Positions 40,418 to 44,042 of a DNA stretch of 64,000 nucleotides are shown here, piece by piece (position 1 is the stretch's first letter; every line of letters begins with the position of its first letter). Under the pieces are notes generated by a model, which saw nothing but the letters and a program-made list of their open reading frames with translations, had not been told where the DNA came from and searched no databases. The DNA lies in the IMG/VR virus record IMGVR_UViG_3300030376_001752, positions 4,118 through 68,117 of that record; one strand, written 5' to 3'. The DNA comes from a virus. Lineage: Duplodnaviria; Caudoviricetes. The translations under genes and the position numbers were made by a program.

Positions 40418-40425
40418 TTTTTTAG

Positions 40426-40499
40426 ATGCGCAGGAAGGATTCGAACCTTCGACCTCGAGCTTATGAGGCTCGCGAGCTGACCAACTGCTCCACCGCGCA
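40426..40499 (-). tRNA. tRNA with CAT anticodon (Met-like, atypical identity elements)
   Basis: Full cloverleaf: TGCGCGG/CTGCGCA acceptor, GAGC/GCTC D-stem, CGAGC-CTCATAA-GCTCG, GAAGG-TTCGAAT-CCTTC; U73; no encoded CCA. Confidence 0.9.
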
Positions 40500-40511: not shown

Positions 40512-40769
40512 TTAATCTAGCAATACCATATAACCTGCTGAGTCCGTACTTCTGAACCAGTCTAAACCTTTGTAGAAGTCTTTAATTATCTTCTCATCAG
40601 TATTACCCATTTCAAAAGTCATTTGTGCACCCATTATAAAGTCATACATTGCTAGTTGTGCTGCTGTTAATTTATATTCTTCTCCGCTGAACGGATTTGT
40701 TACTGTATCACCTTCAGTATATACAGCTCCATTAAACCATTTTGGTAATTTGTTTTTATCTTTATTCAT
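40512..40769 (-). CDS. Hypothetical early protein
   Basis: 85-aa ORF in the early gene run. Confidence 0.65.
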   Translation of the reverse strand: MNKDKNKLPKWFNGAVYTEGDTVTNPFSGEEYKLTAAQLAMYDFIMGAQMTFEMGNTDEKIIKDFYKGLDWFRSTDSAGYMVLLD

Positions 40770-40995
40770 CTTTATTTAGGAATTTATCACCGTACATAAC
40801 ATCATGTGCAGTAAGTTGGTATGTATATAAGTCAGAATAAGAGCATAGATCACTAACGTCTGACACTGTTAGCTCTGACCATATGTTACTAGCCATAAGC
40901 TTGTAAGATAATCTCTTTGCTGAGTCATACTTCAAAGCATTAATCTCAAGAGTTGTTTGAATGTTTGGTCTTAGTAGTTCGTATAAGTTTTTCAT
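40762..40995 (-). CDS. Hypothetical early protein
   Basis: 77 aa, directly downstream of promoter copy 2. Confidence 0.65.
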   Translation of the reverse strand: MKNLYELLRPNIQTTLEINALKYDSAKRLSYKLMASNIWSELTVSDVSDLCSYSDLYTYQLTAHDVMYGDKFLNKDE

Positions 40996-41013
40996 ATTGT
41001 ATTTATTTAATTA

Positions 41014-41045
41014 TATTATCTAACTTGATTCGTATTTATATTGTA
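41014..41045 (-). promoter_or_regulatory. Early promoter motif copy 2
   Basis: TACAATATAAATACGAA-TCAAGTTA-GATAATA. Confidence 0.8.
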
Positions 41046-41120
41046 ATATCAAGGGTGACACCATGCACAGTGTCCAAGCTTTCTGAGGTGTTAACCGTCC
41101 TTCTTGTTTTACCCTGTTAG

Positions 41121-41167
41121 AGAACATGGTGGGATTCGAACCCACACTTTAGTACCGTAGCATGTTC
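41121..41167 (-). ncRNA. tRNA minihelix 1 (acceptor stem + T-arm, no D or anticodon arm)
   Basis: GAACATG-(15 nt)-GTGGG TTCGAAT CCCAC-CATGTTC-T, followed by CTAA. Confidence 0.65.
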
Positions 41168-41261
41168 TACCATAATTACTACTTGTCACTACGACTGGCT
41201 TTGTACAACTGATACCTCAAGGAAGCCAAGGCGTCGATTTACTGTTAAAGTAATAAATTAG

Positions 41262-41422
41262 TGGACGTGGCAGGATTCGAACCTGCGTTACCGGGTTGCG
41301 GTTGGATTCAACTAAACTGAGGCTGCCTCAATTAGCAACTCTTGCAGCAAGATTAACACCGTTGCTTTGAGTGTAAGTTTAGTTTACTGTTACCGATTTC
41401 CGGTCAATACCTCATCACGCCC
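41262..41422 (-). ncRNA. ssrA: Miniature tmRNA-like RNA (161 nt)
   Basis: GGGCGTG/CACGTCC acceptor with G3.U70 and A73; D-loop analogue ATGAGGTATTGAC; CCGG/CCGG helix; TAAC linker; T-arm GCAGG-TTCGAAT-CCTGC. Confidence 0.75.
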
Positions 41423-41532
41423 ATAAAGTAGCAGTTGTAGACTGGTAGTTAACTAGTATTGTCATTTATCTACAATTTCTGTTTTGCGAACCATAGTAGG
41501 AATTACCGCTAACGTGACCAGTATGCCGCCAC

Positions 41533-41784
41533 TTAGTTTCCAAACTCTATACCGCTTCTAGATGTCACCATCCATTCACAGTCTTGTAACTTGTGTCCTG
41601 CTCCGTATAGAAACGCTTCGCAAGATTCACAGTCTGGATTCCACTTATTTTCTTTGTTACATAAAGCGCTAATGTCATATCTATATACCTTACCAACTGT
41701 AAAGTCTAGTACAAATACATACTTAGCTACTGTATATTCTTTTTCTTCTTGCATTTCTGCATATGCTTTTTTTGAATCACTCAT
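41533..41784 (-). CDS. Hypothetical early protein
   Basis: 83-aa ORF. Confidence 0.6.
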   Translation of the reverse strand: MSDSKKAYAEMQEEKEYTVAKYVFVLDFTVGKVYRYDISALCNKENKWNPDCESCEAFLYGAGHKLQDCEWMVTSRSGIEFGN

Positions 41785-41797
41785 AATTATTATATTA

Positions 41798-42007
41798 TTA
41801 TCTTAAACAAGTACCGTAACCTCTACGAGCGGTTAGCTTACGTATTCTAGCTGCTTGGGCCTTTGGCATTATCTGAATAGTATTGCCGGTTTTGTGGTAT
41901 GTGATTGCCACACAGCCATAAGCTTCCGTACTGCTACAGTTAACACATTCTTTGTAACCGAGTGCTAACCGCTGCGGAGGTATTATATTATTACATTTAC
42001 ACTTCAT
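41798..42007 (-). CDS. DksA/TraR-like C4 zinc-finger protein
   Basis: 'CKCNNIIPPQRLALGYKECVNC' matches the C..C...IP..RL.....C..C pattern; start moved to 42007. Confidence 0.6.
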   Translation of the reverse strand: MKCKCNNIIPPQRLALGYKECVNCSSTEAYGCVAITYHKTGNTIQIMPKAQAARIRKLTARRGYGTCLR

Positions 42008-42201
42008 TATCCTCTTACCCAGGTTAAACCTTTGTGATTGAACCACTCGCTTATACCTTCTTTGTCAGTGTCAGCATTATATATAAAGCCGAAGTTGTTA
42101 GGTATACTACATATATCGTAAGCAATCCACTTTTGATTGTTGAGTAGTAATTGTTTAGGGTCTTTTTTAGAGTATTTGATAGTTTTGATAGTGTCTGTCA
42201 T
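42007..42201 (-). CDS. Hypothetical early protein
   Basis: 64 aa, downstream of promoter copy 3. Confidence 0.6.
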   Translation of the reverse strand: MTDTIKTIKYSKKDPKQLLLNNQKWIAYDICSIPNNFGFIYNADTDKEGISEWFNHKGLTWVRG

Positions 42202-42238: not shown

Positions 42239-42270
42239 TATTATCTGATTGTATTCGTATTTATATTGTA
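42239..42270 (-). promoter_or_regulatory. Early promoter motif copy 3
   Basis: TACAATATAAATACGAA-TACAATCA-GATAATA. Confidence 0.8.
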
Positions 42271-43149: not shown

Positions 43150-43356
43150 TTAATGATTTTTAAGTAAGTGATTAGCGATCTTCTCAGCAGTGAGTGACAT
43201 GAGATAACTATGAGCTTCGTTATATTCTAAGGGTGTAGAGCTAAGTAACTCGTCAATCTCACCACTGAGTGTCCAATCGCATATTTTATATATTTCTTTT
43301 ATTGCTTCTTTGCTAGCTTTGTCTGCTAGTCTATCAAATTCTTTAGTCTTGCTCAT
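43150..43356 (-). CDS. Hypothetical early protein
   Basis: Start moved to MSKTKE at 43356. Confidence 0.6.
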   Translation of the reverse strand: MSKTKEFDRLADKASKEAIKEIYKICDWTLSGEIDELLSSTPLEYNEAHSYLMSLTAEKIANHLLKNH

Positions 43357-43579
43357 AATATTCTCTTTTAAATGGTGAGTTCTCATCACCTGGTGCATAC
43401 TTATTCCAGTGGTCTACTAGTTCTTTAGTCCAACCGCCTTGAGCTTTAACTTTTTCGTTAATTAATTCCATTTGTCTTAACCCACCTTTCCAATATCTGT
43501 GGTCATCTGCCATCATATAAGTGAAGTCGTGATGTTTAATCATATCTTTTAGTGATAAGTCGTCGAAGTATTTAGCCAT
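43343..43579 (-). CDS. Hypothetical early protein
   Basis: 'HDFTYMMADDHRYWKGG' motif. Confidence 0.65.
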   Translation of the reverse strand: MAKYFDDLSLKDMIKHHDFTYMMADDHRYWKGGLRQMELINEKVKAQGGWTKELVDHWNKYAPGDENSPFKREYYEQD

Positions 43580-44001: not shown

Positions 44002-44042
44002 TTGTCACGAGTGGAATCGAACCACTATTAACCATTGTGACA
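44002..44042 (-). ncRNA. tRNA minihelix 2
   Basis: TGTCAC(A)-(9 nt)-AGTGG TTCGATT CCACT-(C)GTGACA-A, followed by CTAA. Confidence 0.6.

Follow-up and report, generated by a model that had tools for sequence, protein, structure and literature searches.

The window analysed here, a 64,000-nucleotide stretch of DNA, makes up most of a 68,117-bp IMG/VR virus record that is judged complete. The genome encodes a ribonucleotide reductase, a ThyA-like enzyme, Erf, an exonuclease, a ligase, a sigma-like factor and GroEL. PHROGs searches of 20 larger ORFs returned replication, nucleotide-metabolism and structural genes, and Pfam searches of ten early ORFs returned a pyrimidine-dimer glycosylase only; no tRNA enzyme, SmpB, RNA ligase or integrase was found in either set. 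The primase/helicase has its closest relatives in phages of Cellulophaga, Riemerella, Tenacibaculum and Flavobacterium and the DNA occurs in marine runs, so the host is probably a member of the marine Flavobacteriia. A megablast search with 20 kb of the genome against INPHARED found no close cultured phage.

In the early region the genes lie on the minus strand, as do the RNA elements of the window described below. A 520-nt stretch free of ORFs runs from the stop codon of an 83-aa ORF (41533) to an early-promoter-like motif (about 41014-41046), a putative promoter with which the next unit, ORF 40995..40762, starts. The sequence from 41046 to 41426 folds into four separate domains. The first module of the array is a tmRNA-like RNA consisting of the tRNA-like domain only (TLD RNA, 41262..41422), with G3.U70, A73 and a variable interior. 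Both of its ends align to the Rfam tmRNA model, at 27.5 bits, below the gathering score of 47, and nearly all relatives possess it, with unchanged ends around entirely dissimilar interiors of 42-129 nt. A few relatives have lost G3.U70, and several genomes place this RNA 21 nt ahead of an ORF start. Next comes a hairpin RNA of about 80 nt with a conserved core, termed S (about 41176-41256); its closing stem in the window differs from that of three relatives (L027, L037, L041) with pairing kept, and its position in the array varies among genomes. The third domain is the minihelix that is the subject of this work. The fourth is a structured RNA termed G (about 41052-41115), which begins 5-6 nt past the discriminator of the minihelix and ends at the early promoter. 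G has conserved ends, AGGGTWAAAACACGAAGGACGG at the 5' side and CAGAAAGC at the 3' side followed by a hairpin and then CACCC, around a variable interior with inserts that vary; it has no Rfam match. Relatives retain S and G as conserved modules with covarying closing stems, in an order that changes from genome to genome. In these relatives G follows the TLD RNA, a minihelix of the present type (family B) or a longer tRNA-like element termed D, always 5-6 nt past the discriminator. D elements (L017, L025, L026, L031, L061, L067) have acceptors such as AACTAGG/TCTAGTT and an interior of 46-68 nt that ends in GACGG(G/A)TA before the T-arm; some hold a motif resembling G RNA.

The minihelix itself occupies 47 bases (41121..41167) and corresponds to the top half of a tRNA, acceptor stem and T-arm with no anticodon. 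Reading along the minus strand, the acceptor 5' strand GAACATG (41167-41161) is followed by a 15-nt linker, CTACGGTACTAAAGT (41160-41146), the T-stem 5' strand GTGGG (41145-41141), the T-loop TTCGAAT (41140-41134), the T-stem 3' strand CCCAC (41133-41129) and the acceptor 3' strand CATGTTC (41128-41122), which pairs perfectly over 7 bp with GAACATG; a discriminator T, U in the RNA, closes the element at 41121. The CTA that follows (41118..41120) is common to the tRNA-Met and other tRNA-like modules of the phage and presumably provides the context for 3' processing. A sequence-only reading had proposed the element at this position with this acceptor, linker and T-arm structure, and re-reading the minus strand bears it out exactly. 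It had also anticipated that tRNA finders would miss the element, and the sole call made by ARAGORN and by the Rfam tRNA model at gathering thresholds is indeed a tRNA-Met(CAU) at 40425-40499. Compared with the tRNA family RF00005, the minihelix has no D-arm or anticodon arm and only 15 nt between acceptor and T-stem, and is therefore no cloverleaf; its top half is that of a tRNA, with a 7-bp acceptor on a 5-bp T-stem, T54 T55 C56 R57 A58 and the pair G53-C61. The alanine identity elements G3.U70 and A73 are absent, A3-U70 and U73 standing in their place. The Rfam tmRNA model aligns to the T-arm alone (14.3 bits, gathering score 47), and in the fold of the window copy the linker contains no helix that could correspond to P2, the SmpB platform. 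A permissive Rfam search of 40900-41600 brought up only the TLD RNA and the T-arm, both as tmRNA-type matches.

The T-arm core GGTTCGAATCC, with at most one mismatch, occurs at four sites in the window, all on the minus strand, where 0.26 are expected, and none of 100 shuffled sequences reaches four. These sites are the tRNA-Met, the minihelix, the TLD RNA and a second minihelix at 44002-44042. The minihelix is also the minimum-energy fold of the element; its energy is unremarkable (z = -1.7), and folding energy alone was for that reason dropped as evidence. A chance hairpin therefore has to be ruled out by comparison of homologues.

Homologues were collected with the neighbouring 83-aa protein as query, which led to 19 related loci, and with a pattern of linker and T-loop, which led to 17 viral loci and then to at least 119 marine metagenome contigs (TARA, GOS and JGI sets). 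Across IMG/VR and the marine metagenomes, family B comprises at least 150 copies, with 44 distinct 47-mers and 23 acceptor/discriminator types among the matches listed. In the 44 distinct sequences standard pairing holds in 97.7% of 528 pair cells, a figure that falls to 40-52% when the partner strand is slid. Changes on both sides of a pair account for 84 cells and affect nine of the 12 pairs, namely all seven of the acceptor and two of the T-stem. None of 500 shuffles reaches the covariation score of these 44 homologues, which followed a first pass with 17. G53-C61 is kept in 43 of the 44, TTCGA is invariant and the T-loop consensus is TTCGANT. The acceptor stem, by comparison, varies at every pair among the matches listed, and the discriminator may be U, A or C; G3.U70 together with A73 appears in three of the 44 distinct members.

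The high proportion of paired cells and the compensatory changes mean that the helix is under selection as RNA. They exclude chance pairing, tRNA decay and a site that works purely as DNA, and they uphold in full the earlier argument, made from the perfect pairing of a single copy, against decay; the compensatory changes whose absence from homologues was to count against the element are present. The family-B minihelix is a real and widely conserved element of uncultured marine phages. Two other readings of the same DNA were set aside. An overlapping 41-aa ORF (41020..41145) changes in the pattern of an RNA helix, and an intrinsic terminator, made of the T-arm and CATGTTCTCT, is flagged in the window copy only, most homologues having no T-run after the T-arm. 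Outside these phages the family was not encountered: there is no family-B match among 185,579 representative bacterial and archaeal genomes of GTDB, and blastn of the element against phages matched only the T-arms of ordinary tRNAs. One match, in Maribacter phage Panino, was rejected as an unrelated irregular stretch within a tRNA array. It is an unannotated stretch with a T-arm-like motif (L060 2380-2535) between tRNA-Val and tRNA-Met of a 15-tRNA array, which also carries an annotated tmRNA overlapping two tRNAs.

The array is mosaic. An exact search of IMG/VR retrieved a sister phage (L005) with about 99% identity over the block 41095-41290, which comprises the TLD T-arm, S, the minihelix and the beginning of G; the flanking genes have diverged to only about 67% protein identity. 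This pattern points to a recent exchange of RNA modules, and such recombination adds to the apparent conservation of the block. In related strains the sequence of DNA contigs changes over at 41288-41290 and at 41415. One family-B subtype with the acceptor AGTGGTG/GATGTGG (L037, L038, L041, L053 and related metagenome loci) has conserved flanks, GGTTAATTAG before and CATAACTGAATAGCTAACC after the element, which can pair with one another, and the subtype may therefore be one arm of a bigger RNA. Three metagenome contigs of 50-58 kb or less (L040/L148, L093, L166) stop exactly at the discriminator of an element of this type, probably through an assembly break at a mosaic boundary, a genome end being the other possibility.

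Such boundaries could be taken to mean that the element has no function as RNA and is instead what is left of a tRNA or tmRNA-like gene, a site where gene cassettes frequently recombine, or an attP-like copy of the 3' end of a host tRNA. Mosaic joints and assembly breaks do coincide with elements, the TLD RNA's T-arm marks the point where contigs of related strains diverge, and modules are shuffled between genomes. Compensatory changes at nine of 12 pairs and near-complete pairing nevertheless require selection on the RNA helix and largely refute this account. An attP core, moreover, needs no complementary 5' strand, the scanned ORFs, early and larger alike, include no integrase, and the representative genomes hold no copy. 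We consider it very improbable.

If the helix is selected as RNA, what surrounds it bears on what it does. The tRNA-Met(CAU) of the same early operon (40425..40499) has the same N73-CTA trailer as the minihelix and is wedged between two ORFs, 12 nt past the stop codon of one and 8 nt ahead of the ATG of the next, an arrangement in which the mRNA must be cut when the tRNA matures. An initiator-like tRNA-Met with a mismatch at 1:72 occurs in relatives as well, and none of these tRNAs encodes its CCA. CTA follows N73 in 67 of 79 distinct tRNA-like elements of all families; in family B it does so in 98 of 150 copies among the matches listed, most others having CAT or CAA. An ORF starts within 60 nt of N73 in 54 elements of all families, at 20-22 nt in 30 of them and at 14-15 nt in ten. 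Among 114 distinct family-B contexts in the matches listed, a start codon lies 14-23 nt past N73 in 46, with a peak at 20-21 nt, an early promoter lies directly 3' in 19 and G RNA in five; the remainder have mostly a tRNA-Met or other structured RNAs on the 3' side. On the other side of the element, 69 of these 114 contexts have a small, covarying hairpin, in many cases with AACA after it. Between the discriminator and the ATG runs a consensus leader of about 21 nt (CTAAC..TAAATATAATAACT), and the same leader is seen after early promoters. Each of six near-complete genomes has two to four T-arm motifs, all of them on the gene strand and no more than a few kb from the early region. Like the structure and the conservation of the minihelix, its orientation and its stereotyped placement are directly observed: in form and setting it matches a t-element, as a non-decoding acceptor/T-arm fold that is co-oriented with the genes and lies at borders of mRNAs and RNAs.

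By analogy with such elements, we lean modestly towards a role for the minihelix as a punctuation signal that would be cut by RNase P on its 5' side and by RNase Z or a similar enzyme on its 3' side. An early precursor would start at a promoter near 42239 and pass through three small ORFs into the array of TLD RNA, S, minihelix and G. There the 12-bp stack of acceptor and T-stem, the canonical T-loop and a D-loop-like GG in the linker would be presented to the host RNase P, RNase Z or its equivalent and the CCA-adding enzyme. RNase P cutting between 41168 and 41167 would create the 3' end of S RNA, and a 3' endonuclease cutting after U41121 would create the 5' end of G RNA; cutting at this 3' site in relatives would leave a short A/U-rich leader on the next mRNA. 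The by-product would be a minihelix RNA of about 47 nt, probably CCA-tailed. Transcription, the two cleavages and CCA addition are what we infer from the analogy. Contigs assembled by Logan from metatranscriptome run X20, which cover part of a 5.5-kb region, fall on early ORFs (41444-41580, 41826-42175 and 43251-43409) and none lies over the minihelix; contigs cannot show RNA ends, so they are uninformative either way.

Several features of the family are in keeping with punctuation. What tRNA-processing enzymes read is kept, that is, the 7+5 bp stack, G53-C61 and TTCGANT, and what synthetases read drifts, a pattern that would be expected of a processing signal. That the TLD RNA, family B and the D elements are interchangeable before G at a fixed spacing of 5-6 nt would also fit a generic cutting signal, and the 5' hairpin with AACA could plausibly protect the 3' end of the upstream RNA after an RNase P cut. 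From the menu of functions offered by the sequence-only reading, a processing signal releasing neighbouring RNAs thus suits the context best: the minihelix lies between two structured RNAs, a true tRNA-Met has the same trailer and occupies the same kinds of site in the genome, and in relatives the minihelix precedes start codons by 14-23 nt or stands immediately ahead of a promoter, a tRNA-Met or another RNA. The EF-Tu or aminoacylation role on the same menu is disfavoured, since acceptor and discriminator vary freely over 23 types and no single synthetase identity is kept. Punctuation has its own difficulty at this locus, where both neighbours of the window copy are putative non-coding RNAs and the benefit of cutting is not evident.

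Could the fold act in cis without being cut? As a nuclease-resistant structure it might insulate a downstream translation start from structure on its upstream side, protect an mRNA end or aid ribosome loading that does not depend on a Shine-Dalgarno sequence. The fixed 20-22 nt between element and start in many copies would suit such a role, as would the A/U-rich leaders in phages whose primase/helicase relatives point to Flavobacteriia hosts. A plain hairpin would suffice for it, however, and the canonical T-loop, G53-C61 and the tRNA-type trailer point instead to tRNA enzymes. The window copy, in addition, is not beside a start codon, and equivalent positions are occupied by a real tRNA, which must be excised. 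We regard action in cis without cutting as quite unlikely.

The linker sets a harder problem for the punctuation model. Only three of its 15 positions vary among the at least 150 family-B copies in the matches listed. The main search patterns required the linker, and two half-pattern searches, each freeing one half of it, were run for this reason; they added only three variant loci. Its GGTA resembles G18 G19 U20 A21 of a D-loop, and its last four to five nucleotides, A(A/G)G(T/C), resemble a variable loop, such as the AGGTC of the phage's own tRNA-Met; the linker would accordingly cap the T-loop in the manner of a tRNA elbow. A Shine-Dalgarno-like reading of UAAGG in the linker was rejected, as 54 of the 150 copies in the matches listed have AAAGT instead. 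When about 300 kb of related loci were scanned without bias, short-linker minihelices proved to form discrete families, each with a conserved linker of its own, of 15 nt in family B, 9 nt in C1 and 12 nt in C2. The second minihelix of the window (44002..44042) belongs to C1 and has a 6-bp acceptor with a conserved A.C mismatch, the 9-nt linker ATGGTTAAT and a T-arm; the ATG of a 44-aa membrane ORF follows 21 nt downstream. Across the window and loci L010-L040, C1 and C2 (linker TTGGAGCAGAGG) are found in a common position, some 21 nt before a small membrane ORF (MKRKFQH...). The acceptor stems of both families covary, and both retain the mismatch at pair 7:66. The sister families C1, C2 and TLD, like B, each keep their own linker.

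A pure cutting signal should tolerate drift in the linker, yet the linker is nearly invariant in family B while every acceptor pair has changed, a disparity that would count against punctuation as the whole story. A generic cutting signal has no need of such constancy, and a sequence-specific partner is therefore possible; something beyond generic recognition by RNase P and RNase Z constrains this segment. The released, CCA-tailed minihelix may itself be the product, with processing only the means: linker and T-loop would bind a specific factor of host or phage, and the RNA would serve as a decoy or sponge. The partner could be a toxin or sensor directed at the acceptor end or the elbow of tRNAs, an enzyme that modifies tRNAs, or SmpB or EF-Tu. 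In its favour are the retention by each family of its own linker while the stems drift, and the copies in L034 and L132, which carry G3.U70 and A73 and occupy the slot of the TLD RNA, a link to tmRNA-like mimicry. Hudson et al. (PMC4131195) report strong inhibition of tmRNA by a TLD-only molecule, with titration of SmpB as a possible cause. The neighbourhood, though, offers no candidate partner, the early ORFs having no such match in Pfam or PHROG, and any target that reads acceptor or discriminator is excluded by the lack of conservation of both. A free-standing decoy would not predict the tight coupling to start codons and promoters either. Overall we judge it unlikely that the minihelix itself is the product. 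One form of the idea, that the elbow of the excised, CCA-tailed minihelix, linker and T-loop together, titrates a host reader of tRNA top halves, either an immunity toxin or sensor or, jointly with the TLD RNA, ribosome rescue, strikes us as decidedly doubtful; if true, it would establish an ocean-wide new class of phage RNA for counter-defence or for the control of translation.

Should the minihelix be cut by tRNA enzymes as the punctuation model holds, globally distributed marine phages would organise early expression by tRNA-style punctuation, which is known from organelles and is undescribed for phages in the literature searched. The model, if true, would explain short unstructured leaders in hosts without Shine-Dalgarno pairing, and the ends of the structured RNAs, S, G and the TLD RNA, would become defined. 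Whatever its role, the family, with its clean covariation and at least 150 sequences, escapes current tRNA and Rfam tools. Rfam does not represent it, and a literature search on phage minihelices, t-elements and tmRNA-like RNAs, run outside most subscription journals, yielded no account of such a family. With the family annotated, spurious small ORFs such as 41020..41145 would disappear, and the near-invariant linker is a concrete handle for finding a partner.

How does the family compare with known systems? The MHV68 vtRNA-miRNA units and the mascRNA of MALAT1 use a tRNA-shaped module from which RNase P or RNase Z frees an adjacent non-coding RNA, the module being CCA-tailed and uncharged. 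Those modules are eukaryotic, cloverleaf-like and made by Pol III or Pol II, whereas the minihelix belongs to a bacterial phage and is a top half only. An acceptor/T-stem minihelix is also the minimal in vitro substrate of RNase P, RNase Z, the CCA-adding enzyme and some synthetases, and natural phage substrates of RNase P exist, for example the precursor of the P1/P7 C4 RNA. The 12-bp coaxial stack and the T-loop of such model substrates are the same as here, but those are laboratory constructs or single cases, and the phage minihelix occurs naturally as a conserved family that also has an invariant linker.

Closer to home, mycobacteriophage DS6A encodes a TLD-only "tmRNA", and molecules of this kind are reported to inhibit tmRNA (Hudson et al. 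2014, PMC4131195). The tmRNA TLD and the minihelix have in common an acceptor on a T-arm, a D-loop analogue with GG, the absence of an anticodon arm and a place in phage genomes, and the acceptor and T-arm of the family-B copies in L034 and L132 are those of the TLD RNA of these phages. The window minihelix differs from the TLD of tmRNA in its A3-U70 pair and U73 and in having neither P2 helix nor tag frame.

The nearest parallel is found in plant mitochondria, where t-elements direct cuts by RNase P and RNase Z at mRNA ends and are CCA-tailed and base-modified and not aminoacylated (PMC1920247, PMC11658184). Plant t-elements (Hanic-Joyce et al. 1990; Forner et al. 2007, PMC1920247; PMC11658184) and the phage minihelix both keep an acceptor and a GGTTCRANYCC T-arm. 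Both lie within longer transcripts, as we take the phage transcription to run, at gene borders and with no encoded CCA. The plant elements are degenerate relics, about 70 nt long, of tRNA genes that can be identified in the organelle; the phage element, by contrast, is a 47-nt top half with a dedicated, near-invariant 15-nt linker and a large covarying family, and its cleavage would be the counterpart of a reaction established for the plant elements. The relation of the phage minihelix to plant t-elements is one of analogy, not homology.
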